Virus record (IMG/VR): IMGVR_UViG_3300021600_000632 | Coordinates: 1-57,567 of that record | Direction: 5' to 3' (one strand) | DNA length: 57,567 bases | DNA from: a virus | Taxonomy: Duplodnaviria > Caudoviricetes | Shown: positions 15,172 to 34,601 of the stretch, piece after piece | How the letters are laid out: every line of letters begins with the position of its first letter | How positions within the stretch are numbered: position 1 is the first letter of the stretch | Notes under the pieces: model-generated | What the model was told of the DNA's origin: nothing | The model's database searches: none | The model's input: only the letters and a program-made list of their open reading frames with translations | Position numbers and translations under genes: made by a program

Positions 15172-16131
15172 TTACTTTGAAAAATCAACAATAAATCTAA
15201 ACGCACGATCATTAGTGGCATCAAATGAGTCATCAGACTTGAATTGACACGGACTTATGTCACCCAAATGATTAAAGTTTGCAATTGACCGTCCTCCTCT
15301 CAGCCGATATCCATCCAGCGTTTCATCGGAAAATAATTCCTCACTATCACTAAGTCCCCAATGACTGTAATGCATGTTGCCTAAAACATTAAATTCAATA
15401 GCTCGCAGTAATCTAACCTGTTCAGCTCTTACCTTTAACTTTTCAGCAACAGCTGAGACAAAATCACTATTATTAAATACTGCTCCTTCGATATTAAATC
15501 TACTGCCAGCATCTTGCTCCTTGCCACTAATTGCTCCGTTAGCTCGATAATACTTAATAATATCAGACAAATAGTCATTCTTGAATTCTCCTGCGTGATT
15601 ATTGTAAGTATCACAACCTGGACGCTCACGCTTATCAACCAGCAACCATGAACCTTTTAAAGTAGCTGAATCATGCTGAATGTGCGGCCCCTTAGTTTTA
15701 AAAATTCCCAGTTTAGCATAATTCATCATTTGGTAGAACTCTTTATATGGTCGAAATTTCCAAGCAGCAAGCTTCGCCTTCTCCGTCATTTCAATTGACG
15801 GTAAATACCGTAACTCCATTTCCATTTTTTCCCAATGCTGGATATTCTCCAATGTAGCCTCAGCAGGTAATTCTGGCACATCAATATTTTTACCAAAAAA
15901 TTTACTAAGATCTTTACATTCTCTATTTTTTAGCAATTCAATTTTTAATTCTTTACGTTTTTCAATAACACTTACTCTCAATTTAGAAATATTAGCCATG
16001 TTTCTATCGAAATTTAAGGCATCATTACTTTGAGCGCTTGACGCAATGTTGACCTGTTTAGCAACAATGAAAAATTGCTCTTTTAGAGAGCCAATAAATA
16101 TTTTATGTTGCTTACAGCTTATATTTATCAT
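15172..16131 (-). CDS. Cys-leader protein (degenerate NISCKQHK) + CLec/FGE-like domain, family A
   Basis: FFG..VP.LP, ELRYLP, GSWLLVD, SRF, RAIEFNVLGN, terminal FRFIVDF. Confidence 0.8.
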   Translation of the reverse strand: MINISCKQHKIFIGSLKEQFFIVAKQVNIASSAQSNDALNFDRNMANISKLRVSVIEKRKELKIELLKNRECKDLSKFFGKNIDVPELPAEATLENIQHWEKMEMELRYLPSIEMTEKAKLAAWKFRPYKEFYQMMNYAKLGIFKTKGPHIQHDSATLKGSWLLVDKRERPGCDTYNNHAGEFKNDYLSDIIKYYRANGAISGKEQDAGSRFNIEGAVFNNSDFVSAVAEKLKVRAEQVRLLRAIEFNVLGNMHYSHWGLSDSEELFSDETLDGYRLRGGRSIANFNHLGDISPCQFKSDDSFDATNDRAFRFIVDFSK

Positions 16132-16139
16132 AACAATTA

Positions 16140-17069
16140 CTACTGATTAAGCCTAATCATAACCCTAAAACCAACGCCAGTCGATCTGTCACTAGCGGAG
16201 AATGAATCCACCTGATCAATATCCCGTGTTGCACCGAAAACAAATTTAAATGTTTTTCCGTCTTGACCACGATCAGAGCAATGTTCGCTTGAATTTGCCT
16301 GACCCAACTGAGGATAATACATATTTGCTAAAACATTAAATTCAATTGCCCTTGGATAATCAATGCATTCGGGGCTTACAGCAAATATTGACGCAAATTC
16401 TTTTTTAGTTCTTTCGTCTTCAAGCTCGTCTAAAGTTATGCTACACCTTGATTCTTTCTTAATTTTTCCGGTTTTTGATGACTCGGCTATCGCAGCCTCA
16501 TCTACAACACCCTTGGATTTAAGTCCAGAAATTATAGCAGCTAGTAGGTCATCTTCATATTCCTGAGTTTCACCCATACTAATACGCCATGGCTTCTTGA
16601 TATTTTCAATTAAAAACCAACCTGATTTTAACTGAGTAATATCTTTGGGAAATGTTCCTTTATTTATCATGTCCCACATTCCAAATGCCCCACTATGTGG
16701 CTTTTTCCTCCAACCCGGATACTTAGCGCTCTTGTTCATGTTTATCTCTGGTAAGTAATGAAGATCTAGACCGAGCTGCTTCCATTGTTCGAGTTTATCT
16801 TGTGTTATTTCTTTAGGTAAAAATGACACCTCAATTTTTTCACCAAAAAATTTTTCCAGGGCCATTGCCTCTCCTTTTCTAATTTCAAAACCAAATGGCA
16901 ATAACTCTCGAAGATCAGTAATTAGAAACTCAAGAAACATCATCTTACCGTTTATTTTATCGGCATGATCACACGTGCTGGCCGTCTGAATAGATTCATT
17001 AATATCATCAATTCTGAACTTTAATTCGTCAAGTTGTTTTTTTAATTGTGGGCAATTTAGATTTCGCAT
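16140..17069 (-). CDS. CPQLK-leader protein + CLec/FGE-like domain, family A
   Basis: MRNLNCPQLKKQL; LHYLP, PGW..KP, PRAIEFNVLAN, GFRVMIRL. Confidence 0.85.
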   Translation of the reverse strand: MRNLNCPQLKKQLDELKFRIDDINESIQTASTCDHADKINGKMMFLEFLITDLRELLPFGFEIRKGEAMALEKFFGEKIEVSFLPKEITQDKLEQWKQLGLDLHYLPEINMNKSAKYPGWRKKPHSGAFGMWDMINKGTFPKDITQLKSGWFLIENIKKPWRISMGETQEYEDDLLAAIISGLKSKGVVDEAAIAESSKTGKIKKESRCSITLDELEDERTKKEFASIFAVSPECIDYPRAIEFNVLANMYYPQLGQANSSEHCSDRGQDGKTFKFVFGATRDIDQVDSFSASDRSTGVGFRVMIRLNQ

Positions 17070-17078
17070 AATTTCAAT

Positions 17079-17753
17079 CTATTTCTCATTTTCTATATCT
17101 GGAATTACAAAGATATATTTCTGCTCCCAGTCTTGACTAGGTAGCACAGCTAACGTTTGTCGATAACCACCCAGGGAGGAATATCGACGATTTGTTAAAC
17201 AAAACACATACTTTTGACTACCATAAGCTATTGGCTCCATCGCTACAGCGAACCTTTCACCTTCTGCTAAATGTAAATCCTCTCGCCCTAAATACAATGC
17301 TGTTTCGGTCTGACAAAGATCAAATCCGATATCCATAGCTTTTTTATTAACCTCATTGAGATTACTCAAGTAATCTACACCAAGCGTTTTATAGTCAATA
17401 AATGCTATTCTTATTTTTTTTGGAGTATCTGACAGAATGCAATTTATACTCCTAACTACTCCAATCCTAGTGCTTTCAGCGGGTCCTATAATTTCAGATT
17501 CAAGCTTGTTTTTATCAAGAGTGCCACCAATTAACAACTCCTTGGTCTGTATTTGCTCTTTAATTAAAAATTTTTCAAGACTAACATGTCGCTTAAATTC
17601 AAGAACAATATCAAGCAGCTCCTGTGATAAATCTTCAATCTCAGCGAAGTTTTTTCCAGTATCAATATTTGCAATATGCTCACCCATAATTAATACTTGC
17701 TCTTTAAGGTATTCTAATTTGTATTTTAGCTGTGGGCAATTATTATTGTTCAT
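17079..17753 (-). CDS. CPQLK-leader protein, family C domain
   Basis: MNNNNCPQLK; LG..A..IGFDLC..AMEPI..VF pattern shared with 17756..18463. Confidence 0.8.
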   Translation of the reverse strand: MNNNNCPQLKYKLEYLKEQVLIMGEHIANIDTGKNFAEIEDLSQELLDIVLEFKRHVSLEKFLIKEQIQTKELLIGGTLDKNKLESEIIGPAESTRIGVVRSINCILSDTPKKIRIAFIDYKTLGVDYLSNLNEVNKKAMDIGFDLCQTETALYLGREDLHLAEGERFAVAMEPIAYGSQKYVFCLTNRRYSSLGGYRQTLAVLPSQDWEQKYIFVIPDIENEK

Positions 17754-17755
17754 CT

Positions 17756-18463
17756 TTAAACTTTAAATATATATTCGCCAAAATTTGCCTGAGACTTGTA
17801 AGATTTTGCACTAATCAATGGATTAACCTCCTCAACTCTAATAAATATCATATTATTGTCCCTGACATCAGTGATTGGATCCACAGGAAAATTATACATA
17901 CCCTGCTTTGCATTTTTTTGACTAGCGAACTGTTCAATAAAAGATACAATGGACTGTGCCGGACAAAGTTCGAAGCCCATACTCTGAGCCCTTTTTACCA
18001 GCTCTACTGACGTTGCACCGTCTTCCAGACCGATTTCATGTGCATCAACACAAACTAACCTTAATTTATTTGGACATGTCTCGCTCAAATCAAATCCTAT
18101 CTGTTCGCGCGTTTTATGAAAGAGCGCAATATTCAATAGTGTGTCTGCGGCCGTTTTATCCATTTCAAGACCGAAGTTTTTCAATTTAGCAATAGTGCCC
18201 TTGTTGGCCAGACAAGAAGGATCTACATTAACCTCCACTAGACCAAACTTTTTAAATAGCTCGTCCTTGCGTAGTTGCACAAGATTTATTTTTAACTCAC
18301 CTACCAAATCCTCTAATTTAGCCAACTTATCAAGCATAAAACCAATTTCGTTAGGTTTACAACTACCATCTTTAAGTATTTTAACCTCTGTATTCAGCAA
18401 ATTTTTCTTTGCGATAATATTTACTAGCTGTTTTTTTAGTTGTGGGCAATTCAAATTAGACAT
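17756..18463 (-). CDS. CPQLK-leader protein, family C domain
   Basis: MSNLNCPQLKKQL; IGLEDGAT..RAQSMGFELCPA. Confidence 0.8.
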   Translation of the reverse strand: MSNLNCPQLKKQLVNIIAKKNLLNTEVKILKDGSCKPNEIGFMLDKLAKLEDLVGELKINLVQLRKDELFKKFGLVEVNVDPSCLANKGTIAKLKNFGLEMDKTAADTLLNIALFHKTREQIGFDLSETCPNKLRLVCVDAHEIGLEDGATSVELVKRAQSMGFELCPAQSIVSFIEQFASQKNAKQGMYNFPVDPITDVRDNNMIFIRVEEVNPLISAKSYKSQANFGEYIFKV

Positions 18464-18466
18464 AAA

Positions 18467-19381
18467 TTATTTATCAATACGAACAACCAGACGAAAACCA
18501 ATATTCTGACTTCTGTACTCGCTGTTAAAATGTCCAATACCGGAGAAGCCATTTTTTGTAGAGCTGCCAGAGCAGATCGTTGAGCCCAGACTAGCAAAAT
18601 CATTGTTTAACCATTCCATAGTGCTGGTCTTGCTCCACTCAGGATGATGTATATTACCTAAAAAGTAATACTCTGGTAATCTTGGCAAGCCAACTTGAGT
18701 CCACTCTACATTTAACAAGTCAGCAAATGCTTGTTTAACACCAATTTTACTCTCTAGTTCTATTGGCGTTTGTCCATACCTTGATGACTGACTGATCTGC
18801 ATTTTTTTGTCAGATGCTTGTTGCTTTGAGGCCTTAACTTTTGGCTCGGCCTCAAGTAACCCCATAGCCTTTAACTTAACAATTACTGGAGCCAAGCTAT
18901 CATTATTATACTCAGTAACCGGCTCACTTATTTCCGGCTTTGGGCAAGTATCAACTAATATCCAACAGCCATTTAGCTCGAATTTTGAAAAAAATCCAAG
19001 TGATGCACCAAATTGATATAAACTATTTTTTAAATTATTATCAAAATCTTCAAAGCTCGTCTTAGGCAAGCAATGAAGTTTAAAACCCAGTCTTTCCCAG
19101 TTTCTTATTTTTTCATGAGTAACTGACTTCGGAAATTCTGGCAACTCAACTTCACGTTTGAAAAAACGGCCTATCTTTTGTCTCTCTCTTTTTTGCAACA
19201 TCAAACCAACCGGCAGCAGTTCTTCAAGCTTAATCATTAAAGATGAGAGCATGTTTATCATCTTATCTAAATCAGATAAACCTTGTTTATCAACATCAAC
19301 AATCATCAACTCTATATCGGCCTGAATTTTATCAATTTCTTGAAGCTGTTTTTTTAGTTGTGGGCAGTTTATATTTTGCAT
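18467..19381 (-). CDS. CPQLK-leader protein + CLec/FGE-like domain, family A
   Basis: MQNINCPQLKKQL; GCWILVD..KP, LPR..E..LGNIHHPEW, EW, GFRLVVR. Confidence 0.85.
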   Translation of the reverse strand: MQNINCPQLKKQLQEIDKIQADIELMIVDVDKQGLSDLDKMINMLSSLMIKLEELLPVGLMLQKRERQKIGRFFKREVELPEFPKSVTHEKIRNWERLGFKLHCLPKTSFEDFDNNLKNSLYQFGASLGFFSKFELNGCWILVDTCPKPEISEPVTEYNNDSLAPVIVKLKAMGLLEAEPKVKASKQQASDKKMQISQSSRYGQTPIELESKIGVKQAFADLLNVEWTQVGLPRLPEYYFLGNIHHPEWSKTSTMEWLNNDFASLGSTICSGSSTKNGFSGIGHFNSEYRSQNIGFRLVVRIDK

Positions 19382-19383: not shown

Positions 19384-20259
19384 CTATTTATTTTCATTCA
19401 ATCTGGCCATTAATCTAAAGCCGGTATTATCTGAGCTTCGTTCGAAACCAGTTAGGCCAACAGACGATAGATTGTTATCACCAACCCAGCCCGCCACAAG
19501 ATTTTTCACAATTAATTGGCTATCAGCCAGCCATTCATTACATTCCGTATCGCCCCATTCTGGATGATGCATATTTCCCAAAACACTATATTCTATCGCT
19601 CTAGGCAACCCCAAGCTTTCAACTGGCACGTTAATTACATACGCCAGTTCATTTAAAATACTCTGGCTCTTTAGTTCCCGAGCTGTAATATTAAATCTTG
19701 AACCACCCTTATCAATACTTTTGATTGCAAAAATGCTTCGCAAATATGCCAAGACGTCACCAAGTAAGTCATCAACGTAACCATCTCTAGATTTTTTAAT
19801 TCCTTCAATAAGTATCCACCCAGCCTTAAGTCTTGTTGAGTTTGCTGGTAAAGTGCCGTCGGCAACTAAATCATAAAAACTTTTATCAAGCTTATTTTGC
19901 CAGCCAGGACAACCAACATCTTTTGACATATCCACATCTGGTAAGTAATGAAGCTCCATGCCAAGTTCTTGCCATTCCATATACTGCTCGGGCGTAACAG
20001 TTGCTGGCACATGCAGCACCTTAATTTTATTACCAAAGAATTTTTCCAAGGCAACTGCCTCTTGCCTAATTATCTTTCGGTCAAACAATAACGCATCAAA
20101 GGTAAGTATCGCATTGGTCAACTCCTCTAATTTATCATTTATATATTCAATTTTTACGTCCTTGTGGCTAGGAACCTGCAATAACTCAACAACACCGTTT
20201 TCAAGCGCTTTTAGTGTGGCTAAATTATTTTTCAGACTCGGACAGTTAATATTTGACAT
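19384..20259 (-). CDS. CPSLK-leader protein + CLec/FGE-like domain, family A
   Basis: MSNINCPSLK; ELHYLP, LPRAIEYSVLGN, EW, GFRLMAR. Confidence 0.85.
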   Translation of the reverse strand: MSNINCPSLKNNLATLKALENGVVELLQVPSHKDVKIEYINDKLEELTNAILTFDALLFDRKIIRQEAVALEKFFGNKIKVLHVPATVTPEQYMEWQELGMELHYLPDVDMSKDVGCPGWQNKLDKSFYDLVADGTLPANSTRLKAGWILIEGIKKSRDGYVDDLLGDVLAYLRSIFAIKSIDKGGSRFNITARELKSQSILNELAYVINVPVESLGLPRAIEYSVLGNMHHPEWGDTECNEWLADSQLIVKNLVAGWVGDNNLSSVGLTGFERSSDNTGFRLMARLNENK

Positions 20260-20268: not shown

Positions 20269-20907
20269 TTATTTAGGCCAGGTTTTTACCCAACTCTTGC
20301 CTTGTTCATTAAATCCAAAGATCATCTGGTTCTCCATGTTACCATCCACAAGGACACCACGATTTATCTCCGTATCTCTTTGCATGCTTGCCTCACCTCT
20401 AACATCAATACTCCCAGATTTAAGCATAAATGCATATGACAGACCGTCGGTGACCTCACCGGTATTTTCGTATTCACTAAAATCTTTTATATCGCCCTCA
20501 CTAGCCATTAACATTAATAAATTCCCTTGCTGATCAATAATTTCAGACACCAATTTCAACTTGGCAAAATCATCACCCAATTCTGCAGTAAACTTCTTAA
20601 ATAAATCAACAATTTCCTGTCGACTAAAAATAACCTTGCCGAGCATTTGCGAAGTTACGAACTGACTAACAAAATGCTCACTTTTTGGCATCAAGTCATC
20701 CAAGCCACGCTCTTTTTTAATATTTCGCACAATATCCTTCACACAATAAAGCTGAGCGATCGCAAATCGCTCTTTTTGTATTCCCTGATCCAAATCATGA
20801 ATATCAACTGCCTGATCAACATCCTTAATACTCTCGCCAAAATCAACTAAAGCTTGGGCTAGTTTTTGAAATTCATTTTTTAGTTGTGGGCAGTTTGGAT
20901 TATTCAT
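20269..20907 (-). CDS. CPQLK-leader protein with an unassigned C-terminal domain
   Basis: MNNPNCPQLK; remainder unlike its neighbours. Confidence 0.8.
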   Translation of the reverse strand: MNNPNCPQLKNEFQKLAQALVDFGESIKDVDQAVDIHDLDQGIQKERFAIAQLYCVKDIVRNIKKERGLDDLMPKSEHFVSQFVTSQMLGKVIFSRQEIVDLFKKFTAELGDDFAKLKLVSEIIDQQGNLLMLMASEGDIKDFSEYENTGEVTDGLSYAFMLKSGSIDVRGEASMQRDTEINRGVLVDGNMENQMIFGFNEQGKSWVKTWPK

Positions 20908-22066
20908 AATTTATATCAAAAACCTTTTCACCTTTTTTATTTATATAGTAAGACGCGCCACCTTTACTAACAAACGCAATATCACCAACGAAGGGATTCG
21001 TTTTACTGAAAGAATCTTTTATTGCTAATTCGCCACTCTTATTGATATACCCCCACCTACCGTTTATCATTATCGAAGCAAGGCCTTCATAAAAATCAGA
21101 TACTACATTAAATGAATTTCCATAAAAATTTTGACCACTTTTAAAAATAATATTTTCACCCCTATCTATTGCAATTATCTCTTCGTTAACAACTGCCCAA
21201 GCAATACCATCACTAAACTGTCGTAAAAATTGGTATTTTTTATTTGATACTTTTTCTCCATCAAGACCTACAAAATAGCAAGAATCTTTTTCTTTAATGA
21301 CCGCCAACCCATCTTTAAAATCTGAAACAGCTTCACCATACATTTCATATAGCTCGTCTCCTGTATTGTCAATTAAGATCGTATCATCGCCAAATTTAAC
21401 AAACGCTCTTTCATTATGAAACTCACCAGCTTCATCATATTCACCAAAAACCTTTTCACCCTTACTATTTATATAAAAACAATCATTGTCCTGTTTGACC
21501 GAGCAAAACCCCTCACTAAATCGCCCAACATCGTCATAGCATTCATCGTTCAAACTACCTCCATCTTTAGTCACAAAATTATATCCAGTTCCAAGATTCC
21601 AATGTGCAACACCTTCATAAAAATCACTAACATCTTGATAGCCAGATCCAATTTCCTCACCATTTTCATCTATCCAAGTCCAATCGCCATACATGCTTAC
21701 CCTGGCCATGCCTTCGTGAAAATCACAAACCTCATCATAGTCAACTCCAATTTTTTGCCCTGACTTATCGATAAAAAATTGTCTATCACCCTGAATTACT
21801 TTTGCACGATCATCAATAAATCTACCAACAAAATTATAATTAAATTTCTCGGCTAGTTTAAGCCTATACTTTAAACCAAAAAACGCCTCATTTGTTTTGA
21901 TCAGTTCTATTTGATTTTGAAGATCATCAATAACTGCTGAAAAATTTTCCAATTCACCAATATTTGTAGCTTCGTGAATATGACTAACAAAATTATGTGC
22001 CTTATCTTCCAAGGCTTTTATTGCACTTAAACTCATTCTAAGTTGTGGACAGTATAAATTGTTCAT
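20900..22066 (-). CDS. CPQLR-leader protein + WG (KWG-type) repeat domain
   Basis: MNNLYCPQLR; repeated F.EG.A.V..(W)..I.K.G units. Confidence 0.87.
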   Translation of the reverse strand: MNNLYCPQLRMSLSAIKALEDKAHNFVSHIHEATNIGELENFSAVIDDLQNQIELIKTNEAFFGLKYRLKLAEKFNYNFVGRFIDDRAKVIQGDRQFFIDKSGQKIGVDYDEVCDFHEGMARVSMYGDWTWIDENGEEIGSGYQDVSDFYEGVAHWNLGTGYNFVTKDGGSLNDECYDDVGRFSEGFCSVKQDNDCFYINSKGEKVFGEYDEAGEFHNERAFVKFGDDTILIDNTGDELYEMYGEAVSDFKDGLAVIKEKDSCYFVGLDGEKVSNKKYQFLRQFSDGIAWAVVNEEIIAIDRGENIIFKSGQNFYGNSFNVVSDFYEGLASIMINGRWGYINKSGELAIKDSFSKTNPFVGDIAFVSKGGASYYINKKGEKVFDINYE

Positions 22067-22082: not shown

Positions 22083-23093
22083 TCAACTGCGAGAAAAGAC
22101 TACTCCAACATTGCGACGTGAATCGCTAAGCCCTCTGCCATAAACACTCGCACCGCCAAGATCAACATTACCAACATCGACTATATTACCAACCGAATCA
22201 CAGCGCATCGTCCATGCCTTAGTATTTTCCAATAATTTTTCATCATTATTCTGTCTATAACTAAAAATATCATATAAAACCTCGGCGGGAGTTTGCCTGG
22301 ATAACTGATTGATTTTCAATGCCGAGAGCTCACGTGCGTACTTTTTAGAGGTCGGACCACTAATTAAATCTTGAATCTCACCATCAGTTTTGCCTTTAAA
22401 ATTCTTCACAAAGTAATCAACATACTCATCCATGGCTTCGATAAATTTTCTTGGTATAGCAGTGCCGCCACACTCTGTGTTGAATAAATCATCTACATAA
22501 TCATAAAGAACTCTCGTTTGCTCGAAATAATTCTTATCCGTTGAGGCTGGAATAATTTCTTTGGAAGTTAGCGACCATCTGAATTTAATTGGATCGTTTT
22601 GCCAAAAATCTTCTAGACTAAACAACTCTTTCAAATCAGCTAATTCCTTGTAGGTAATTTTTCCTTTTTGACTTTCGTCATAACCACCGTCCAATAAGCT
22701 AGCTCGTACTCGCTCCATAGTCAATGGTTGACCTTCACGGTCTATATCAGAACGCAATACCAAGAACTGACCAAGCTCTTTGGCTTTAATTAATTCCTCT
22801 TTTGAGAATTGAATAGCCGGAATATTTTCTTTTGAAATCTCAATGCCAAAAGCTTTTTTGACCTCATCTGGCCCCAACACCTCCCTGGTACCCATGATTT
22901 CTTTGGCACGCTCAATTGATACTGGTGTTTGTTTTTTTAACTCTTTTAATAATACTTCGGCCTGATTCAAGTTTGCTTGAACATCAAAGATATTTTTTTT
23001 GTTAACAACACCAATCTCCATCTTAATTACTGATTGAAGCTTCTTGAGTTCTTTGAGTTGTGATTTTAGTTGTGGGCAATTCAAATTACTCAT
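22083..23093 (-). CDS. CPQLK-leader protein + CLec-like domain, family B
   Basis: MSNLNCPQLK; RQTPAEVLYD, LLEN..WT, G..V.VG, terminal GVVFSRS resembling CPR DGR-target ends. Confidence 0.8.
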   Translation of the reverse strand: MSNLNCPQLKSQLKELKKLQSVIKMEIGVVNKKNIFDVQANLNQAEVLLKELKKQTPVSIERAKEIMGTREVLGPDEVKKAFGIEISKENIPAIQFSKEELIKAKELGQFLVLRSDIDREGQPLTMERVRASLLDGGYDESQKGKITYKELADLKELFSLEDFWQNDPIKFRWSLTSKEIIPASTDKNYFEQTRVLYDYVDDLFNTECGGTAIPRKFIEAMDEYVDYFVKNFKGKTDGEIQDLISGPTSKKYARELSALKINQLSRQTPAEVLYDIFSYRQNNDEKLLENTKAWTMRCDSVGNIVDVGNVDLGGASVYGRGLSDSRRNVGVVFSRS

Positions 23094-26000: not shown

Positions 26001-26112
26001 CTTGTAGTTCATCTCTTTGGGTCCACAGTTCACGTGGTACACCATTTTCATCAAAGGGCTTTTCTTGTTTTACAGCATCAATTGATTCTATTTTTGGTTG
26101 AAATTGTTTCAT
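23086..26112 (-). CDS. Metallopeptidase-like (HExxH) + VWA domain protein, MoxR partner
   Basis: HEFAH and NILED in the N-terminal part; acidic/Lys-rich linkers; MIDAS LVDLSGSM..GGT..ISDG. Confidence 0.85.
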   Translation of the reverse strand: MKQFQPKIESIDAVKQEKPFDENGVPRELWTQRDELQEWARTKSDIFTTFLDNRNAKFKLVGGMGFYHEPGADKISLSTPEFKAMREGGKMTEEQFVFVGCHEFAHLKTMMELDPAGKYNQLEQFNYERSKKIPSIDNPGKFVSLSSTYRQYYNILEDAMVNHLVLKSAYFASNFTAEGKKRTESIESMYTTKMFSLYEDVVSGDFAQNEKGEIHKVETGTGDLRLLDEVDYEKGIDFTKARPELKNAGEFLTFFIKNQMIGMKPQDVYDEKENPNGKHHLSEAASIVLRKPLAEAYESLLGIVNNKNQAEPEKLERYSRFLKQVHLVNNFALKNGESEKVGSELYDNGVLMTDKEQKSGQIEPCINAAWANAQFGAKIRRVQQSMGIKSFDSLTFIELFDRFKETKAASGYSATRPLKFGLTERTRVMRQVLEPIYTLLCIIDDNFEVKLPPEKEPGEEGEGEDGDSSPENQESPSWKAGDEVKNAKTGQKGVIVNVIPDEATHGVRSVEVRYFDEEQAMASGVGVSTKTEVFFRPDQELILLYDEADDGGQSVSKDDKRKREPKEKKDKKNKDSKEKSKDKDQQDKDLQSKEKEKKERSDGSGESSGENGEDVDLGEAMSDMEKSLRDMMAQDKREKTLKDVEAQLKSPEFQAKQAAERDKDRILKKMSGSGAGSGGYKEDPLEVDAELYDQFKKLENELAPYANKMAETWSDVVRNISQKFEILKDKYYREGKLDAKRLQRHWPEIELGYGFDQKRVYEQFIEKIVAELRPKLLRVNLLVDLSGSMSGNIDAVRMAVMLINSSLRSFRVLFKNELERIIGPAAAKEDVLTDLQILGFESSTHQVKRFDIEDLSFLEKAEGTAPTQDADYETISTIRSFKKIKAMGGTQDDDCWQILEAQHQDEIIQRLLKDQKMTEMIFQISDGEIDGYEAAEIAEKLRRMNVGVGGMAIGSDGAKKSLEDRLGVGNVISANTPQEIVDQFSTLLVKMVKEKIEDVMTENLKQYE

Positions 26113-27583: not shown

Positions 27584-27784
27584 CTAAGCAGCAACCTCGG
27601 CCGTATCTGGGCAAAGCTCGGCAATTTCCTCCTCAAGTGACTTAATCTCCTCCTGCAAGCCCTTAAACTTTTCTACTAACTCCTTCTTTTGCATTTCAAA
27701 CTTTTTTTGTTCTAGTGCCTCAGTGCTTTGTGTAAATGTTTCTTTTGCAGCAGATTCAAATCCGCCCATGCCTGGATTTTTCAT
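27584..27784 (-). CDS. Small coiled-coil protein with C-terminal CP motif
   Basis: 66 aa, heptad-rich, ends ELCPDTAEVAA; fills the gap between ATPase and WG protein (4 and 1 nt spacers). Confidence 0.75.
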   Translation of the reverse strand: MKNPGMGGFESAAKETFTQSTEALEQKKFEMQKKELVEKFKGLQEEIKSLEEEIAELCPDTAEVAA

Positions 27785-27788: not shown

Positions 27789-30700
27789 TTATTTATTAGA
27801 TAATTTATTAATTAAATTTTGTGCTCTTTGTTCTGGTGTCATATTCGCAGCTTCTGCTAATTCTTCGTCACTAAGCATACTTCTTTTGTGCAAATACCCT
27901 TCAAGGAAGGCGAAGAACTCTTCATAGGTTTCAAGCTTCGCACCCTTCTCTGCTTCATCAAATTTGACCTCATACTCCTTAATCTTATCTATGACCATAT
28001 CGAGCTCCTTAATACTGTCATATTCCAACCCAACCATAAGCTCCATTATCTTCTTGACCTGCTTAACCATCTCAAGTCCGCGAATTTCTGCCTCCGTGTC
28101 ATCTTCACCTTCACGCATCTTGCCAGCTATCTTCTCATATTCCTCTTTTTTGCGCATCGGTAAATAGCCAAAGACTAACTGGGTCATTTCGAGCGAAGAA
28201 AAATATGACAACTCATATTGCCCCTGTGTATTGAGCATACTGACATAGTCGCCATTCTGGGCAATACGTTTATATTTCCCATCGACTTCACCAGCAACAC
28301 CTTCATATTTGCCCAAATCTCGCAATGGATCAAAATTCATCATTTGCTTAAAATCAGTAACCGCCTGACTCTGATTTGAATCAACTCTCATATAATCAGG
28401 CCAACCACCGTCGGCACTAAAAAATCCTGCTTTATTTAAAGTCGCATAAATCACAGCCTGAGCCTGGGGGTGCTGGTCATATTTCTTCACATAATTCCAC
28501 AGATAATATTCGATATCCATAGATCCACCCTGGTCAACATAAGCCCCCAAAATCTGATCCATCAATTCACGCATGGTTAGATTAGCACTACTCAAAGAAC
28601 TAGCGATAAGGGCTGGTGTCACGTCTGCACCAAGAATTGGCTTCAAGTTATCAAGTCTCAAGCCACTATTTCCAGCCTTGCCCTCAAAAACATCCATTAT
28701 CAAACGAGCACCAACACTTAGGCGATACATGTCCTTGAAAAATGAATAACGATCATCTTTTTTGACCAAGACCCTGGCACCCAAGCGCTGATTCATCATC
28801 TTCATGAGTAACACCTCAAATATCTGATCATTTTTAGCCAGCGACTTTGAATCATCAATAATTTTCTGTAGCTCCTCATCATCTTTAAACTCGTCAGTAA
28901 TATGACCCAAGTTCAAACGCTCAATATCAGTTTTAGCCTCATTAAGTTGATTGCTTTGTGGCAAATAATTAACTTGCACCGGAATAATACGACTGTAAGT
29001 AGCTGGATCAGTGTCATTATGGCGCGCTTTGGTATAGCGGTCACCAGTGTTACCAGTCCAAATTACACAATAGCCGGGCTTAATTTGGAATTCACCAATC
29101 GAAGCCTGAGTTTTTTGTGTCTCGCCAATCTTCTTGGTTAAGAGATCGTTAAAAGCAATTAAAACTTCTGGGGGGATGGCGTTTGCCTCGTCAATAATAA
29201 GCGGTACGCCCTGGCGCATGGCTTCATACATTGCACCTAATACAAATCTACCTTGTACTGGATTACCATAGACACTAGCGAGTTGGCCATTAACCAACTC
29301 TTCTGTCTCACCTCTTAATTTTTTCTCATTTTTCTTAAAATACGCTTCAAAACCACTCTCAGTATCATCTTGATCTTCGGACAATGAATTATGATATTCC
29401 TGACGAGCCACCTGCATAAATACCGCCTCACGCTGCTCTTTTTCTGATCCTACCATGGCAGCAATTGTCTTGGTCAAAGACTCATTACTGCTTAAGTCCA
29501 CGTCTTCGCCAAATTTCTTGGCAATAATTTTGAAATGCTCTTCTGGTGTCAAATTCTCAATCTTGAAAGTTTCAGTAAAGCGGTCCGGCTCTAAATATTT
29601 ACTACCAGAAACAATAATCGGATCTTTTGATTTGCCGTTTTCATCTTTACCTGTCAGATAATTTCGAGCAATGTGAGTCGCCAAGGCAGTCTTGCCCGTA
29701 CCATGGTCACCATGTAAATAAACGATAGTTGGTGACTTGCCCTCTTGCACTTTAAGCACTGGCAAAATCTTTTCGATAATACTTTTGATGTATGGCGTCT
29801 CAACAATTTTACCATTGTGTAGCATCTGCCAAAGATTACCCAATTCACGCTTGTAGTTTACGTAGGCCGGCAAAAACTCCTTTGCCACAATATTTCCAGA
29901 CTTTTCATATTCAGTCTCCATGCCAACATTCAAATTCAAACCTAAATTCTTTTTGGCTAATCGAGAAAAGCGCTCATTTAGTTTACCAATTCTTTCCTGC
30001 TTCAACCTAGGTCGCATTGCACCAAGCTCCTCAGAGCTTCTAAGCATATCGACATTTCGACTAGACTTGCTTGCCGCCAAGGTAGATTTATTTTGCCTAA
30101 GTTTTCGTATCGTATCTCGAACATCTGGATACTGGGCTTGAGCATATTTTTCAATCGATTTCATTTCGTCATCAGAATATGCACCAAGCTCTTGATCTAA
30201 TTCAAAATATTCTTCCAGGTTTAAAAAAGCTCGATGAGATTTACCAGCAGCTCGATTTTCTGCTTCGCGATAAGCATTACTACTAGTATTCTCTTGATCA
30301 TGTTCAGATAAACTTGCCAACTCTTTGTTCTCAATTGACTGCATTATAAAGTCATAAAAATCATCACCATCTTCTGTTTCGGCTATTTTTAACAAGTCCT
30401 TAAAGACTTCAACATTTACATTATTCGTTTTATTCTCATCACTTTTTTCGACCAAGGCAATTTTAGCTGCTGTTAATGTTTTATGAATAATTTCTGGCGA
30501 CATTTCTCTCGACTCAAGTTCTTTAGCCAAACCATCAATTTTTTTGAAATCTTTTGCATGAGCTAATATCTCTTCCACATCTTCACGATGCACACCATCG
30601 AACAATGATTGCAAGGTTTCACTCGATAAATCTTTTACGGTAATATTCTCAACCATTTCATCCATCAAGGCACGTGATTCTTCGAGTTTAGCCATGTAGC

Positions 30701-30797
30701 CAAAGGCTAAATCCTCAGCTTCAAACGTATTCTCTAATTTAGTATCTTTTGCCGCCTCGGTCGAACGTGCGACTGGCGGTCGATTTTCCTTAAACAT
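27789..30797 (-). CDS. MoxR/AAA_5 (dynein-related) AAA+ ATPase, 1002 aa
   Basis: Walker A GDHGTGKT, Walker B LIIDEANA, sensor WTGN, DPATYSR arginine finger; long helical insert between Walker motifs. Confidence 0.88.
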   Translation of the reverse strand: MFKENRPPVARSTEAAKDTKLENTFEAEDLAFGYMAKLEESRALMDEMVENITVKDLSSETLQSLFDGVHREDVEEILAHAKDFKKIDGLAKELESREMSPEIIHKTLTAAKIALVEKSDENKTNNVNVEVFKDLLKIAETEDGDDFYDFIMQSIENKELASLSEHDQENTSSNAYREAENRAAGKSHRAFLNLEEYFELDQELGAYSDDEMKSIEKYAQAQYPDVRDTIRKLRQNKSTLAASKSSRNVDMLRSSEELGAMRPRLKQERIGKLNERFSRLAKKNLGLNLNVGMETEYEKSGNIVAKEFLPAYVNYKRELGNLWQMLHNGKIVETPYIKSIIEKILPVLKVQEGKSPTIVYLHGDHGTGKTALATHIARNYLTGKDENGKSKDPIIVSGSKYLEPDRFTETFKIENLTPEEHFKIIAKKFGEDVDLSSNESLTKTIAAMVGSEKEQREAVFMQVARQEYHNSLSEDQDDTESGFEAYFKKNEKKLRGETEELVNGQLASVYGNPVQGRFVLGAMYEAMRQGVPLIIDEANAIPPEVLIAFNDLLTKKIGETQKTQASIGEFQIKPGYCVIWTGNTGDRYTKARHNDTDPATYSRIIPVQVNYLPQSNQLNEAKTDIERLNLGHITDEFKDDEELQKIIDDSKSLAKNDQIFEVLLMKMMNQRLGARVLVKKDDRYSFFKDMYRLSVGARLIMDVFEGKAGNSGLRLDNLKPILGADVTPALIASSLSSANLTMRELMDQILGAYVDQGGSMDIEYYLWNYVKKYDQHPQAQAVIYATLNKAGFFSADGGWPDYMRVDSNQSQAVTDFKQMMNFDPLRDLGKYEGVAGEVDGKYKRIAQNGDYVSMLNTQGQYELSYFSSLEMTQLVFGYLPMRKKEEYEKIAGKMREGEDDTEAEIRGLEMVKQVKKIMELMVGLEYDSIKELDMVIDKIKEYEVKFDEAEKGAKLETYEEFFAFLEGYLHKRSMLSDEELAEAANMTPEQRAQNLINKLSNK

Positions 30798-30818: not shown

Positions 30819-31823
30819 TTAAAAACGTGTTTTATATGTTACTCCATACAAATTTTTATATTGACCTTCATCTATCTCCTCTGCTAACGTCTTGTCTATT
30901 ACCACGAGATTATCATGAAACAAGGCAAAATCTCTATGGATATCTAACATCTCAGCTAAGTTGTTATCAATAACGAGTTCTGGCTGCTTGAAGGCACGGA
31001 TCTCAAGGTAATAATCTTTATGCTTAATCAAGTCACAAAGCATTTCGCGGGTCATTGGATCGTTGGTTTCTATTACTAGTTTGCCCTTAAACTTTACTAA
31101 TTCCTTACATATCTCTGGCGTTATGTTGCAATTAAGCGAAATTGCCTCATTGTGCTGCATTAATAATTTAGCAGCCTCAACGTCTGCCACCCCGCCAAAC
31201 CGCAGATCTCCTTTAACATCTTCCAATGCCGATAAAGCTTCCTTGGAATAAGTTTTAAAATCGCCTAAGTATATTTTTCCGTCATGTCCATCAAGTTTCT
31301 GCAATGACTCAACGCTTATTTTGTCAAAAGTTTGCAAATTAAGTGTACCTACATGTTCGCTCAAGCCCTCGGCTGCCCCTGGCGTTAACTCTTCTAACGC
31401 CTCAAAAGTCAAATTACCTTCATGCTTCCCAAGCTGTTCTGCCACTTCTGGCGTCAAGTGCGACAATCGTCGGAGATAGATTTCATTACTCTTTCTTTTG
31501 CCCTTCAATAAATTAATATTTCCCATCGGCCCTTGAGTTAACGGGGTACTCCTGGCCGCAACCTTTTCATGTCGTTCAACCAAAAATTCAGCAACCTCAG
31601 CATTCAACTCAGTTATTTCTTCGCACTTATCCAGCTTACCATTCACAATCTCTTGCCATAACTTCATATTACGAAGTTCTTCTATCTGGTCATGCAAATA
31701 GATAAACAAATCCTTAGCATCGGTGAATTCGTCCCTTGATTTAATATCACACAACAAATCACCCAAAACTTTTTCGGTATTTCTAAGTGCTGGTAATTTT
31801 AACTTAAGACTAGGGCAATACAT
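30819..31823 (-). CDS. CPSLK-leader protein + LRR-like solenoid
   Basis: MYCPSLK; ~22-aa repeats L..LTPE.AE.L..H.G.L.L. Confidence 0.78.
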   Translation of the reverse strand: MYCPSLKLKLPALRNTEKVLGDLLCDIKSRDEFTDAKDLFIYLHDQIEELRNMKLWQEIVNGKLDKCEEITELNAEVAEFLVERHEKVAARSTPLTQGPMGNINLLKGKRKSNEIYLRRLSHLTPEVAEQLGKHEGNLTFEALEELTPGAAEGLSEHVGTLNLQTFDKISVESLQKLDGHDGKIYLGDFKTYSKEALSALEDVKGDLRFGGVADVEAAKLLMQHNEAISLNCNITPEICKELVKFKGKLVIETNDPMTREMLCDLIKHKDYYLEIRAFKQPELVIDNNLAEMLDIHRDFALFHDNLVVIDKTLAEEIDEGQYKNLYGVTYKTRF

Positions 31824-31872: not shown

Positions 31873-31892
31873 CAAAAAAGAGGGCTTGCCCT
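31873..31892 (-). terminator. Internal terminator within the cluster
   Basis: Minus strand GAGGG-caag-CCCTC then TTTTTT in the only long (96 nt) spacer. Confidence 0.6.
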
Positions 31893-31919
31893 CCTGTGGA
31901 TATTATAGCAGGTTTTATA

Positions 31920-32795
31920 TTAAAAACGAACCATAGGGCGGAAACCCATCGTGTTATCACGACGACTTTCTGGATAATAGTTAACATGCGAAAGACCGCC
32001 GTCAACAGAAATACCACCATAAAGCCGGTAACCTCCATCATATATGTCACTAAACCATTCGTAATTTGTGGTCGTGCCCCATTCCTGGTGATGTATATTA
32101 CCCAGAACATTGAAATCAATCGCACGAGGTAACGTCATCTTATCTGCTTGAACTTTTAATACACTGGCTAATGTCTCTCGAACTTCTATTTTTTCTAATT
32201 CTTTAGCAATAATGCCGAATCTTGAATCCTTTTTCTCAAAATCATCTATTACTCCATCTTGACGTAAAAGCGCTAACGATTCAGCAAGAATATCATTCTC
32301 ATACTGCATTTTTTGGCTTGGTTTTTGTCGACCATCAATCAATACCCAACCAGACTTTAATTCGTCTGAAGTAATAGAAATCTTTCCATCAAGCATACAG
32401 TCATAAAACCATTTTTTTGGCCTTTCCCTCCATCCGGGGTAATCTTTATCTTGGCTCATTTCTATTTCAGGCAAATAATGCAATTCAAAGCCTTGCTCTT
32501 TCCATTTCTCCGCCTGTTTAACTGTAATTTCTTCTGGTAATTTAGGCACCTCAATCGGCATACCAAAAAAGGCTTCGAGTTTTTGCTTCTCTGATTTTAT
32601 CAATTCACGAAAGTGTAGTTTTTCGTTTATCTCATTGATTAGCTCCAAGGCGTCATTAAAAATAGCATAAACCTCGGAAACTTTAGACTCCTTGAAATTT
32701 GTTAAGTTCAATTCTTCTAGCTCAACAGCAATCGTATTTTCTTTGGCTTTGAGGAGAAAGAGTTGTTTTTTTAATTGTGGGCAGTTAAATGTCAT
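31920..32795 (-). CDS. CPQLK-leader protein + CLec/FGE-like domain, family A
   Basis: MTFNCPQLKKQL; LPRAIDFNVLGN, EWF, GG..GGLS.V, GFRPMVRF. Confidence 0.87.
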   Translation of the reverse strand: MTFNCPQLKKQLFLLKAKENTIAVELEELNLTNFKESKVSEVYAIFNDALELINEINEKLHFRELIKSEKQKLEAFFGMPIEVPKLPEEITVKQAEKWKEQGFELHYLPEIEMSQDKDYPGWRERPKKWFYDCMLDGKISITSDELKSGWVLIDGRQKPSQKMQYENDILAESLALLRQDGVIDDFEKKDSRFGIIAKELEKIEVRETLASVLKVQADKMTLPRAIDFNVLGNIHHQEWGTTTNYEWFSDIYDGGYRLYGGISVDGGLSHVNYYPESRRDNTMGFRPMVRF

Positions 32796-32806
32796 AATTC
32801 AATACA

Positions 32807-33697
32807 TTAAAATCTAACCATAAGGCGAAAACCTAGCATCTTATCTCGAAAATTTGAATCAACAACTCGAATATCAGAAAGACCACCTGCATCGCTATTT
32901 CCACCGCAAAGATGCCGATCATCATCAATCAAACTATCACTAAACCATTCGCGATTCTCTGTATTATCCCAATCTTGATAATGTAAGTTGCCTAAAATAT
33001 TAAAATCAATGGCCCTTGGCAATGAGACGTTATCAGGTGACACGGCCAAAACCTCCGCCAGTAATGTCATAACTTCAACTTGTTTTAATTCATCAAAACT
33101 AATATCATACCTACTTCCAGTGTTTTTTGTTTTAATTTGCCCTGACTTCTCCAACTTAGCCAACGCATCTTTAAAACAATCATTCTCATATGAATGGGCA
33201 TTAAAATTCTGCCCATACGGCTTTTGCCGACCATCAATTAATACCCACCCGGATTTTACTTCATCTGAATCAATTGAAAGGCTCCCAAAATTAACAGAAT
33301 CGTAAAACAAATTATTAGGCTTCTTGGTCCAACCGGGAAACTCCCTGTCATTTGACATTTTAACATTTGGCAAATAATGCAATTCGAATTGTTGCTTCTG
33401 CCAAGCTTCTACCATATCCTTGGTTATTTCAGCTGGTGGGTTTGGCACATCAATCGAAAAACCAAAAAATTCATCAAGTTTAGCTTTTTCAGTTTCAATT
33501 AAATCCCTAAATGGCATTAGCTCTTTAATTTTATTAATCAAATTACTAGTCTCTTGAAAAGTGTCATAAACCTTATCAACGTTCGATCGTTCGAAGTTAG
33601 TCAAACTCAACTCATCAAGTTCTACAGCAATCATATCTTGCTTAGCGAGTAACTGATGAAGTAATATTTTAATTTGTGGGCAATTCTTATTTCGCAT
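32807..33697 (-). CDS. CPQIK-leader protein + CLec/FGE-like domain, family A
   Basis: MRNKNCPQIK; GGNSDAGGLS, GFRLMVRF. Confidence 0.87.
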   Translation of the reverse strand: MRNKNCPQIKILLHQLLAKQDMIAVELDELSLTNFERSNVDKVYDTFQETSNLINKIKELMPFRDLIETEKAKLDEFFGFSIDVPNPPAEITKDMVEAWQKQQFELHYLPNVKMSNDREFPGWTKKPNNLFYDSVNFGSLSIDSDEVKSGWVLIDGRQKPYGQNFNAHSYENDCFKDALAKLEKSGQIKTKNTGSRYDISFDELKQVEVMTLLAEVLAVSPDNVSLPRAIDFNILGNLHYQDWDNTENREWFSDSLIDDDRHLCGGNSDAGGLSDIRVVDSNFRDKMLGFRLMVRF

Positions 33698-33710
33698 TTA
33701 CTTATTTAAA

Positions 33711-34601
33711 CTAAAAGTGAATAAAAAGACGAAAGCCCAAATTGTCACGTTCCTCATTGCAGGCCATATTTTTAATATCAGAAAACTTACAATTTCCATA
33801 GTTATCACCACTAACCAAATAGTCATTATTCCCAAGTTTATCATTAAACCATTCAAAATTGTAGGATTTCTCCCACTCCTTATGGTGCATTTGCCCTATT
33901 ACATTATACTCGATTGCCCTTGGTAGTTCTATTTGACGTAAAGATACCCCTAAAACCTCACTAAAACCCTGCTTGGCTTCTCCGGTATTCAAGCGCAGTG
34001 GATTTGTTCTAAATCTAGTAGTGGCTGTTTGCGAATTATTCCTAATTATACCTTCTTGTCTCATTTCTGCAATTTTTTCGCCTAAGGCATCATTTATGTA
34101 TACATCACCTCTGCTATCTGGCTTCTGTGTTGCGTCAACAAGAATCCAACCAGCTTTCAACTGATCTGCGCTAGCATCAATTTTACCGTTTTTAATATAT
34201 TTATAGAATGAATCATTGGGCTTTTTCTTCCAGCCAGGAAATACATCTTTTTCGCCCATTTTGATATCTGGCAAATAATGAAGCTCAAAATTTTGCTCTT
34301 GCCACATGGCCATTTTCTCATAGGTCACCTCTGACGGCAAACTAGGCACCTCAATTGTCATGCCAAAAAACGCCTCGAGCTTTTGCTTTTCTGATTTAAT
34401 CAATTCATTGAAAGGCAACTTTTCCTTCAATTTTAATACTAAATCACTAGTCTGCTCTAGCATCTTATAAACTTCGTCAGCTTTTGCTTGTTTATAGCCA
34501 CCAGCCAACTGCAGTTCTTCAATTTCTACCTTTAAGGTATTCTGCTTGGCCAAAATAATATGCAACCTTGATTTTAATTGTAAGCAGAGTTTACTTGCCA
34601 T
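33711..34601 (-). CDS. Cys-leader protein (degenerate KLCLQLK) + CLec/FGE-like domain, family A
   Basis: Start MASKLC chosen to match paralogue spacing (alternative 34613); ELIKSEKQKLEAFFGM identical to 31920..32795; GFRLFIHF. Confidence 0.82.
   Translation of the reverse strand: MASKLCLQLKSRLHIILAKQNTLKVEIEELQLAGGYKQAKADEVYKMLEQTSDLVLKLKEKLPFNELIKSEKQKLEAFFGMTIEVPSLPSEVTYEKMAMWQEQNFELHYLPDIKMGEKDVFPGWKKKPNDSFYKYIKNGKIDASADQLKAGWILVDATQKPDSRGDVYINDALGEKIAEMRQEGIIRNNSQTATTRFRTNPLRLNTGEAKQGFSEVLGVSLRQIELPRAIEYNVIGQMHHKEWEKSYNFEWFNDKLGNNDYLVSGDNYGNCKFSDIKNMACNEERDNLGFRLFIHF

Follow-up and report, generated by a model that had tools for sequence, protein, structure and literature searches.

Introduction

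MoxR-class ATPases remodel target proteins that are held by a von Willebrand factor A (vWA) partner through its MIDAS, an adhesion site that depends on a metal ion, as in NorQD, CbbQO, CobST, and RavA-ViaA. Conflict systems built on such pairs, with variable sensors and short adaptor domains, have been predicted by Kaur et al. 2020 (PMC7159879). Here, we analyze a cluster of 17 genes centered on a MoxR-class ATPase and a vWA protein. It lies in a 57,567-nucleotide stretch of viral DNA (Duplodnaviria; Caudoviricetes; IMG/VR record IMGVR_UViG_3300021600_000632, positions 1 to 57,567), the whole of which we refer to as the window. Fourteen of the encoded proteins begin with a short tag headed by an invariant cysteine (Cys) and continue into one of several different C-terminal domains. 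We find that this architecture is conserved in other genomes, and that different types of tag accompany different types of core.

Other described systems also invite comparison. The MIDAS domain of midasin grips the constant N-terminal UBL domain of the WD40 proteins Rsa4 and Ytm1. In Actinomycetales, the Esr threat-sensing pathway, which has experimental support, joins MoxR-vWA to divergent propeller sensors (2026 preprint PMC13622651). There, the sensors form filaments at the surface, and their signal reaches Esx secretion by way of a kinase, a phosphatase, and an FHA-domain protein. Furthermore, cobST pairs are widespread in tailed viruses, and viral CobT is often mis-called as a peptidase, according to the available portion of PMC8651126.

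A tagged gene array around a three-gene core

The 17 genes all lie on the minus strand (window positions 15172–34613; genes are numbered g01 to g17 as in Table 1) and are as tightly packed as a preliminary description of the window had stated. Their intergenic gaps (n = 16) range from −53 to +96 nt, and the −53 overlap vanishes if the start of g07 is placed at an internal ATG at 27582. The C-terminal domains of the 14 tagged proteins are of no fewer than six kinds, whereas the untagged remainder comprises an AAA_5 ATPase (g05), a 66–amino acid (aa) helical protein (g06), and a protein with an HExxH motif and a vWA domain (g08). The preliminary description had picked out this same leaderless trio, and each member is borne out: the ATPase by Pfam, the vWA protein by its fold, and the 66-aa protein by its retention across loci.

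The ATPase matches Pfam AAA_5 (PF07728; E = 8.8e-8, 32.7 bits, cut-off 22). A weak match to GvpN (26.7 bits) falls far under the cut-off of that family (266.8), and matches to NACHT and AAA_16 are also below their cut-offs. Walker residues G363, G366, G368, K369, T370, D536, and E537 are invariant in 18/18 aligned ATPase relatives. Sequence searches of solved structures with the ATPase and the vWA protein, as single sequences or profiles, returned nothing meaningful.

In g08, the HExxH residues (H102, E103, and H106) and E157/D158 are invariant in 6/6 relatives, as are the MIDAS motif DxSxS at 784–788 (D784, S786, and S788), T890, and D926. HExxH, NxxEDxxVN, and DxSxS are all present in the 13/13 vWA-protein relatives read. 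The structural model of g08 has a pLDDT of 65.7 overall and of about 75–86 in its last domain. The best fold match to residues 685–1008 is the MDN1 MIDAS domain (8ql1_A; Z = 20.5, rmsd 2.5, 208 aligned residues), and other matches include the Rea1 MIDAS domain (Z = 19.6) and NorD (9qh8_G; Z = 15.6). Foldseek gave 208 matches at E ≤ 0.001, all of them vWA among the 50 listed. On this modeling evidence, the predicted vWA fold of the C-terminal domain is confirmed. In fold searches with the whole protein, vWA matches took up the lists. The N-terminal domain has no Pfam match, and relatives of the vWA protein have none at E ≤ 10; judged from its motifs, this domain is a candidate metallopeptidase of the zincin-like kind. 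Over most of its length, g08 also aligns with viral CobT/VWFA models (79 BFVD matches at E ≤ 0.001).

The third core gene is not a stray open reading frame (ORF). A small helical protein of 59–112 aa with a Cys near its C terminus follows the ATPase in 8/8 Cys-type loci with downstream DNA (the window, genomes G242, G401, and G498, and loci L008, L009, L010, and L012). A profile of the small protein matches the copies in G401 (94.6%) and G498 (E = 3e-9). In genome G095, the ATPase itself (834 aa; L019 = G095:C4, 12194–14698) ends in a helical, Cys-bearing tail, which may be a fused form of the small protein; the similarity between the two is weak (hhalign 2.9%) and is not leaned on here.

The N-terminal tag

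The tag consists of 2–9 residues followed by C-[PLSK]-[QSV]-[LIH]-[KR]. As the preliminary description had reported, 11 proteins have CP[QS][LI][KR] within their first 10 residues, and three others have CLQLK, CSVIK, and CKQHK. When the 14 leaders are aligned, the Cys is found in 14/14 and a lysine four residues later in 13/14. A search of the whole host genome, which is Patescibacteria-like, 1.2 Mb in size, and 94.8% complete, with a profile of the leaders recovers exactly the 14 cluster sites at E ≤ 1 and no others.

The Cys is encoded by TGC in 10 tags and by TGT in 4, while leucine is encoded by four codons. The motif is thus kept despite synonymous change, which indicates selection on the protein and not on a DNA repeat. 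This synonymous variation also rules out a DNA-level recombination cassette.

All 17 proteins appear to be cytoplasmic. None has a transmembrane or signal-like segment (Kyte-Doolittle, 19 residues; maximum mean 1.39), in agreement with the absence of signal peptides noted earlier. A lipoprotein or secretion signal is ruled out by the lack of a hydrophobic segment, and gaps of 2–16 nt leave too little room for a longer N terminus. An alternative genetic code is likewise ruled out, since TGA ends 8/40 genes, as expected for the standard bacterial code.

An AlphaFold2 model of g03 (mean pLDDT 87.2) predicts that the tag is a helical hairpin (residues 6–31 and 36–77; pLDDT 53–72), which is similar to many generic helical hairpins (Z about 8–9). 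Among the seven proteins that share the C-terminal domain here called family A, pairwise identity is 0.46 in the tag head (residues 1–16), equal to the best parts of the domain, and 0.19–0.23 in the rest of the hairpin. The conserved part of the tag is about 16 residues with the invariant Cys, followed by the helical hairpin. A four-chain complex prediction (g08 residues 20–445, g08 residues 685–1008, the small protein, and the tag as partner) had a median score of 0.58; controls scored 0.01 and 0.00 with the partner swapped and 0.63 with chain 1 swapped, and the prediction speaks neither for nor against binding.

The Cys is present in 51/51 tags from 5 loci. A leader profile had 27 hits among 1.84 billion proteins, with the Cys in all 23 N-terminal hits, and the other 4 were repetitive and not N-terminal. 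Most of the 27 are input proteins or their near kin; with its 60 positions, such a profile lacks the power for a census. The profile from the window barely detects the tags of other loci (E = 0.001–0.004). Over the 13 residues after the Cys, tag identity is 0.28–0.45 within the four loci with at least three tags and 0.16 between loci; the single tag pair of L009 has an identity of 0.85. We also find that the same kinds of C-terminal domain, family B and WG repeats, carry different tags in different genomes. Tags are therefore locus-specific “dialects.”

The domains that follow the tag are diverse. Family A, the largest group with 7 genes, is held together by mutual BLAST E values of 1e-16 to 1e-100. 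In the g03 model, its domain (residues ~95–291) resembles TvpA, the variable protein of a diversity-generating retroelement (2y3c_A; Z = 9.3, rmsd 3.5, 160 aligned residues), CarF, PvdO (Z = 8.9), and EgtB (Z = 8.4), over about 160 residues. Foldseek matches are weaker (best E = 4e-3), and in the Atlas the TM to FGE-sulfatase clusters is 0.43–0.47. These models lend moderate support to a fold of the FGE/C-type-lectin kind. Family A does not match Pfam FGE-sulfatase at E ≤ 0.01. Moreover, no Cys or histidine inside the domain is invariant across the 7 paralogs, which argues for a binding module rather than an enzyme.

Among the remaining tagged proteins, g10 and g07 have WG repeats (Pfam PF14903; 102.8 and 50.6 bits, cut-off 25.6), and g14 shows weak similarity to g15 (E = 1.7e-7). 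The C-terminal parts of g04, g09, and g11 have no kin inside the window, and those of g04 and g11 have no Pfam match. Family B, represented by g09, has 78 relatives in Patescibacteria, none of them functionally named; most lack a source name, and the others are labeled “hypothetical protein,” apart from one evident mis-annotation. The C-terminal types proposed in the preliminary description therefore stand for the seven C-type-lectin-like proteins (with moderate support), the two WG proteins, and the g14/g15 pair, while an LRR-like domain in g04 is left unconfirmed by Pfam. The possibility that the array is the target of a diversity-generating retroelement was rejected, as the 94.8%-complete genome has no RVT_1 match, whereas control genomes did.

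Related loci in other genomes

The ATPase has 53 close relatives (E ≤ 1.6e-93) in 5.8 billion clusters, some with source names such as “Candidatus Gracilibacteria bacterium.” Its family is rare: of 400 genomes sampled from the phylum, 4 had any match and 1 a full-length match, and of 400 sampled from the class, 9 had a match. Initial scans of genome contigs and viral contigs with the ATPase yielded no relatives, and a word-based homolog search with the vWA protein yielded only 3, low-complexity words having swamped the candidates. The vWA protein is in the same cluster as the ATPase in the window, L012, and genomes G086, G095, G242, G401, G439, G495, G498, G727, and G764.

Cys-tagged genes stand beside the core in 7/10 Cys-type loci examined, and the other three are contigs of at most 5.3 kb. 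Thus, the design outlined in the preliminary description, a constant tag with variable binding domains and a single ATPase/vWA core, is kept beyond the window. The largest array is that of G242, where the vWA protein, the ATPase, and a 109-aa Cys protein are accompanied by at least 21 tagged genes (“MNCQEITK...”). Their C-terminal parts include WG repeats, TPR (by Pfam), and others read as propeller-like or beta-helix-like. This array occupies ~36.6 kb of a ~0.9-Mb genome (about 4%), and the cluster in the window 19.4 kb of 1.2 Mb (1.6%), or about one-third of the window's prophage-bearing stretch. The G242 array is located on a conjugative element with type IV secretion system (T4SS) genes, a large serine recombinase, and ABC-3C genes. 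The latter (DUF2326 and CTD10) lie directly beside the array (L007 18728–19921 and L016 707–1447; G242:C3), in a stretch that is, with its ABC-3C, T4SS, and recombinase genes, defense-island-like.

Other loci are smaller. There are 11 tagged genes around the core in L012, 3 in L011, and 2 in L009. The G498 locus lies among cell-division and tRNA-synthetase genes and combines 4 tagged genes with the vWA protein, the ATPase, and a Cys protein of 74 aa; G095 has one tagged family-B gene with the vWA protein and the ATPase. In G401, the tagged genes (at least 7) are dispersed, with ribosomal and cell-wall genes around them, and the core is on other contigs, which shows that tagged genes can be encoded in trans. 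One 564-aa ORF of this genome (L026 9992–11686) contains two tandem tagged units, a Cys tag with family B and a Cys tag with a family-C–like domain (family C being that of g14 and g15); two genes may have fused here, or a stop codon may have been lost.

In the phylum sample, the best-scoring tag matches are confined to G000 and G242, both with a full-length ATPase, although the profile used was built from these same two genomes. Among family-B relatives whose N termini were read, 11/30 have the Cys tag and the others differ. A recurrent three-gene motif that involves family B, with no ATPase or vWA gene nearby, was also seen on Patescibacteria contigs (L021, L022, L025, L028, L037, L047, and L049). 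It consists of a 300- to 365-aa family-B protein with a Lys/Glu-rich N terminus, a 700- to 950-aa protein that ends in family B, and a short ORF whose similarity is limited to the C-terminal end of family B.

We find three subtypes of the core, each with its own type of tag. The siblings with Cys-less tags have ATPases of about 620–920 aa and vWA proteins of about 715–840 aa, all with HExxH and DxSxS. G086 (L017 = G086:C2, 51–15073) has 11 paralogs beginning “...EELSTLKESLRQA...” that end in family B or WD40-like domains. A different tag, “NF.E.QQ..F..L..ELE,” is carried by 3 paralogs in G495 (L091 = G495:C4, 9231–19347) and by at least 9 in G727 (L095/L096 = G727:C15). G764 has one candidate tag gene, located downstream of the ATPase at a distance of ~2 kb, which is read as a variant of the NF type, although it does not match the motif pattern. 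The small Cys protein is present in 0/4 of these Cys-less loci, in contrast to 8/8 Cys-type loci, a comparison that covers few, non-independent clades. Tag type thus tracks core type, and the tag Cys tracks the small Cys protein. Of the comparative evidence for a joint action of tag and core, this correlation is the strongest.

Comparison with described systems

We first compare the cluster with the MoxR-vWA ternary systems of Kaur et al. 2020 (PMC7159879). Both have a MoxR-class AAA+ and vWA pair, many paralogs per genome, a patchy distribution on mobile elements, and variable FGS (FGE/C-type-lectin), propeller, TPR, and coiled-coil parts. Of the four kinds of third core component described for those systems (VMAP, iSTAND, FtsH, and a vWA-fused propeller), the cluster has none, as judged by Pfam on the 17 proteins. 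Models of VMAP are, we assume, present in Pfam. Furthermore, the vWA protein of the cluster has an N-terminal HExxH domain, its third core gene encodes a 59- to 112-aa Cys protein, and each of its putative sensors has a gene of its own, in arrays that reach at least 21. The hosts also differ, being tiny-genome Patescibacteria here and multicellular bacteria in the described systems; five Patescibacteria-type names are absent from the text, possibly incomplete, of two supplementary files of PMC7159879.

The tag recalls the effector-associated domains (EADs) that the accessible text of the same paper describes: both are short, non-enzymatic, mostly helical terminal domains on many proteins, with neighboring copies the most alike and further copies scattered in the genome. 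EADs are defined by homotypic pairing, whereas no copy of the tag was found on a core component. In addition, the tag is attached to binding domains and not to enzymatic effectors, and an invariant N-terminal Cys does not feature in those descriptions of EADs.

The cluster resembles midasin/Rea1 in having an AAA_5-type motor and a MIDAS domain, and g08 is matched best by structures of MDN1 and Rea1 in which the MIDAS domain is bound to a UBL domain. As in midasin clients, a constant N-terminal handle precedes a C-terminal repeat domain. Unlike in midasin, this handle is a Cys-headed helical hairpin and not a UBL domain, and motor and MIDAS are separate proteins; no conserved acidic MIDAS ligand was identified. 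We therefore treat the likeness to midasin as a working analogy rather than as membership.

With viral CobS/CobT, the cluster shares a two-gene AAA+/vWA pair on phage genomes and a charged linker before the vWA domain in g08. Its ATPase is three times the usual size, and the available portion of PMC8651126 mentions neither tagged arrays nor a small Cys protein in connection with viral cobST. As in the accessible account of Esr (PMC13622651), MoxR and vWA proteins are coupled to sequence-divergent sensors, which have propeller domains in Esr. In contrast to that pathway, the cluster has no kinase or FHA gene, and its proteins appear to be cytoplasmic.

The system is therefore outside the described MoxR-vWA subtypes, from which two defining features, the kinds of third component and a homotypic adaptor on the core, set it apart. 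We take it to be a new build within an already described general class. We found no published description of the tag or the arrays, in a search that did not extend to subscription-only papers, and no Pfam or NCBIfam family covers the tag or the vWA protein. The preliminary description had known of no named system with this leader; for the particular build, this agrees with PADLOC, Pfam, and the literature, but the general class had been described before (Kaur et al. 2020, PMC7159879). The preliminary description did not include the location in a prophage, the Cys conserved in the 66-aa protein, or the likenesses of g08 to midasin MIDAS and to phage CobT.

Discussion

We propose, with a confidence just short of even, that the cluster is a mobile-element conflict (defense-type) system of the MoxR-vWA ternary kind, in which different sensors dock on one core via their tag. 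A role in conflict is suggested by carriage on mobile elements, defense-type neighbors (ABC-3C in G242, and PDC-S01 next to the cluster in the window), rarity, paralog expansion, and the diversity of binding folds. In such a system, the many cytoplasmic tagged proteins, encoded near the core or elsewhere in the genome, would be alternative ligand sensors with FGE/C-type-lectin-like, WG-repeat, propeller-like, or TPR folds. Their core would be the trio of AAA_5 ATPase, small helical protein with a C-terminal Cys, and zincin-like HExxH/midasin-like MIDAS-vWA protein.

By analogy with MoxR-vWA remodelers and with the grip of midasin MIDAS on Rsa4 and Ytm1, the tag may be a handle that plugs each sensor into this single core. 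The small Cys protein would most likely be part of the dock, possibly through a metal or disulfide bridge. Acting via the MIDAS domain, the ATPase might then remodel the ligand-bound sensor or its cargo, and the HExxH domain is the sole candidate for an effector activity.

Several observations weigh against this proposal. The core proteins contain no detectable copy of the tag (hhalign of the leader with the small protein, the ATPase, and the vWA protein: probability 0.1–0.2%), so the homotypic logic of known adaptor domains does not apply. Neither the ATPase nor the vWA protein occurs within 10 kb of family-B genes in 34 loci of species-representative genomes (0/34), and Cys-tagged family-B genes occur as lone genes in housekeeping surroundings. 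Searches with three queries detected neither core protein in G402, which has three tagged genes, or in G403, which has one (completeness not given). Co-occurrence of leader and core across genomes, put forward in the preliminary description as a check, is thus seen in 7/10 loci and, in trans, in G401, while G402 and G403 have tagged genes without a detectable core. The presence or absence of a Cys was compared, as noted above, across few clades. Moreover, PADLOC-DB 2.0 gave no meaningful match for any of the 17 proteins (0/17), the only one being to TRIP13 on the P-loop of the ATPase (E = 5.6e-4), and the likeness of g08 to phage CobT/VWFA means that the core could serve a phage function rather than defense. 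Overall, the earlier interpretation retains its conserved design of tag, sensor, and core, and is qualified by the tagged genes of G402 and G403, where no core was detected, and by a concept that was partly known. The F-box-like delivery of targets to a peptidase that it put forward is a hypothesis.

A phage function of this kind could be an offensive one. The cluster might be a host-takeover module of mobile elements, a CobS/CobT-like motor whose tagged clients bind proteins of the host or of rival elements for remodeling or cutting, in which case it would serve counter-defense or host manipulation and not defense. We consider this unlikely. In its favor, g08 is most like phage “CobT/VWFA” proteins of 650–790 aa, its Atlas neighbors include viral VWA/CobT_C clusters, cobST pairs are common in tailed viruses as described above, and the copies in the window and in G242 are inside a prophage and on a conjugative element, respectively. 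However, no mobile-element gene was seen near the copies in G498, G095, and G495, which are among housekeeping genes, and the tagged genes of G401 are scattered among ribosomal and cell-wall genes. An integrase-adjacent cargo position, with PDC-S01 and ABC-3C as neighbors, is furthermore typical of defense islands. It is also improbable, in our view, that the tag acts alone as an oligomerizing or metal-binding hairpin, with the ATPase/vWA pair a mere neighbor or a general assembly chaperone. The coreless family-B loci, G402 and G403, and the resemblance of the tag to generic hairpins all fit this idea, which is at odds with the adjacency of three tag types to their own core subtypes, with the parallel occurrence of small Cys protein and Cys tag, and with the restriction of the strongest tag matches to two genomes with a full-length ATPase (themselves the source of the profile).

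Conservation concentrated in the N-terminal 16 residues, together with an AAA+ ATPase and a conserved HExxH in one operon, could instead mean that the tag serves as a degron or pro-peptide. In that case, an ATP-dependent protease of the FtsH-like type, split between the ATPase and the HExxH protein, would recognize these 16 residues and degrade or process the tagged proteins, whose level or activity would report the state of the cell. A single conserved Cys near a putative zinc site does recall a cysteine switch. MoxR-class ATPases, however, are known as remodelers with vWA partners (NorQD and CbbQO) and not as unfoldases that feed proteases; the peptidase is a candidate from its sequence motif, and the small Cys protein is left unexplained, so that we find this account quite improbable. 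The prophage location raises the question of virion-associated proteins, with the tag targeting capsid or tail and the 14 proteins being packaged cargo or alternative receptor-binding proteins. A constant N terminus with a variable C terminus is usual in receptor-binding proteins and in T4 internal proteins. Yet the cluster is outside the structural module, beyond the lysis gene, none of its 17 proteins has a structural-protein match by Pfam or PADLOC, and other copies of the system are carried by a conjugative element or by chromosomes that lack phage genes; we regard a virion role as highly improbable. Even less credible is a cobaltochelatase, a CobS/CobT motor that boosts cobalamin synthesis, despite the fold-level likeness of g08 to proteins named CobT. 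The 94.8%-complete genome has no CobN-type subunit (PF02514), which was matched in 5/14 controls, and chelatase function would account for neither the tagged arrays nor the invariant HExxH.

A more specific form of the proposed defense-type system is possible but, on balance, doubtful. In this form, Patescibacteria and their mobile elements would possess a germline-encoded repertoire of up to at least 20 cytoplasmic sensors, whose Cys tag would be bridged by a metal or disulfide to the small Cys protein of one “mini-midasin,” an AAA+/MIDAS motor with a zinc peptidase; sister versions would use the two other tag types. In NLR-like proteins, each sensor is fused to its own NTPase. If the proposal holds, bacteria with genomes of about 1 Mb would have modular, broad recognition in which many cheap sensors share one motor and effector. 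The high cost in genome share, both here and in G242, points to strong selection. The proposal, if it holds, would also assign a role to some of the many CobT-like HExxH-vWA proteins of phages and bacteria, a large family without an explanation so far, and would identify tag and small protein as a compact docking pair. Organisms whose accessory biology has hardly been explored would gain a defined, conserved system.

Gene inventory and genomic context

The window is a siphovirus-like prophage. Its structural genes run from terminase, portal, protease, and capsid through connectors, tail tube, and tape measure to a fiber with a C1q domain and an amidase. These are followed by a DUF4143 ATPase, the 17-gene cluster, small ORFs, and the integrase, and then by host genes (a 2649-aa protein, NrdR, NrdD, and a radical-SAM activase). 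Being located between the lysis gene and the integrase, the cluster is in a cargo position. The DUF4143 ATPase, which has the PDC-S01 match, is likely a second cargo gene of the prophage.

Table 1. Genes of the cluster and other features of the window.
Feature	Position	Strand	Description
g01	33711..34613	-	Tagged, CLQLK; likely start 34601; family A (FGE/C-type-lectin-like) C-terminal domain
g02	32807..33697	-	Tagged, CPQIK; family A
g03	31920..32795	-	Tagged, CPQLK; family A; modeled hairpin tag and FGE/TvpA-like fold at 95–291
g04	30819..31823	-	Tagged, CPSLK; repeat-like C terminus, no family match
g05	27789..30797	-	1002-aa AAA_5 (MoxR-class) ATPase; Walker A GDHGTGKT, Walker B LIIDEANA; long N- and C-terminal extensions
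g06	27584..27784	-	66-aa helical protein, single Cys near C terminus (ELCPD); third core gene, directly after ATPase
g07	26125..27582	-	Tagged, CSVIK; start taken at internal ATG 27582; WG repeats
g08	23086..26112	-	1008 aa; HExxH N-terminal domain (candidate peptidase), charged linker, C-terminal vWA/MIDAS 685–1008
g09	22083..23093	-	Tagged, CPQLK; family B domain, widespread in Patescibacteria
g10	20900..22066	-	Tagged, CPQLR; WG repeats
g11	20269..20907	-	Tagged, CPQLK; C-terminal domain without match
g12	19384..20259	-	Tagged, CPSLK; family A
g13	18467..19381	-	Tagged, CPQLK; family A
g14	17756..18463	-	Tagged, CPQLK; family C (with g15)
g15	17079..17753	-	Tagged, CPQLK; family C
g16	16140..17069	-	Tagged, CPQLK; family A
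g17	15172..16131	-	Tagged, CKQHK (most diverged tag); family A
DUF4143 ATPase	34674..36077		AAA_14/DUF4143; directly upstream of cluster; PADLOC candidate PDC-S01 match (E 1.2e-58)
2649-aa ORF	3992..11941		Adjoins integrase; 0.7% of genome; no Pfam, PHROGs, or NCBIfam match
Small ORFs	13237..14980		Several, between integrase and cluster
79-aa ORF	14376..14615	+	One of the small ORFs; two Cys pairs
Siphovirus-type module	37046..57567	-	Complete-looking; portal fused to Mu-F-like domain, S78 protease, small and large terminase
ParB-methylase	55283..56521		ParB N-terminal domain fused to N6/N4 DNA methylase (PHROG 498, E 8.5e-130); upstream of terminase genes

A PADLOC search of three of the small ORFs between integrase and cluster had no match, and a tRNA scan found no tRNA. 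Of the sequencing runs listed as containing the sequence, one is of DNA, which may be the source sample, and none is of RNA. Promoter-like sites are as frequent as expected from shuffled sequence (64 versus 63.1). Terminator-like sites number 19, against an expected 12.2 ± 3.6; one of these lies in the 96-nt gap after g03 (31895–31878, minus strand), and none was used in the analysis. The right end of the prophage is beyond the window, and the tail fiber of its structural module is a protein of 748 aa that carries the C1q domain at its C terminus.

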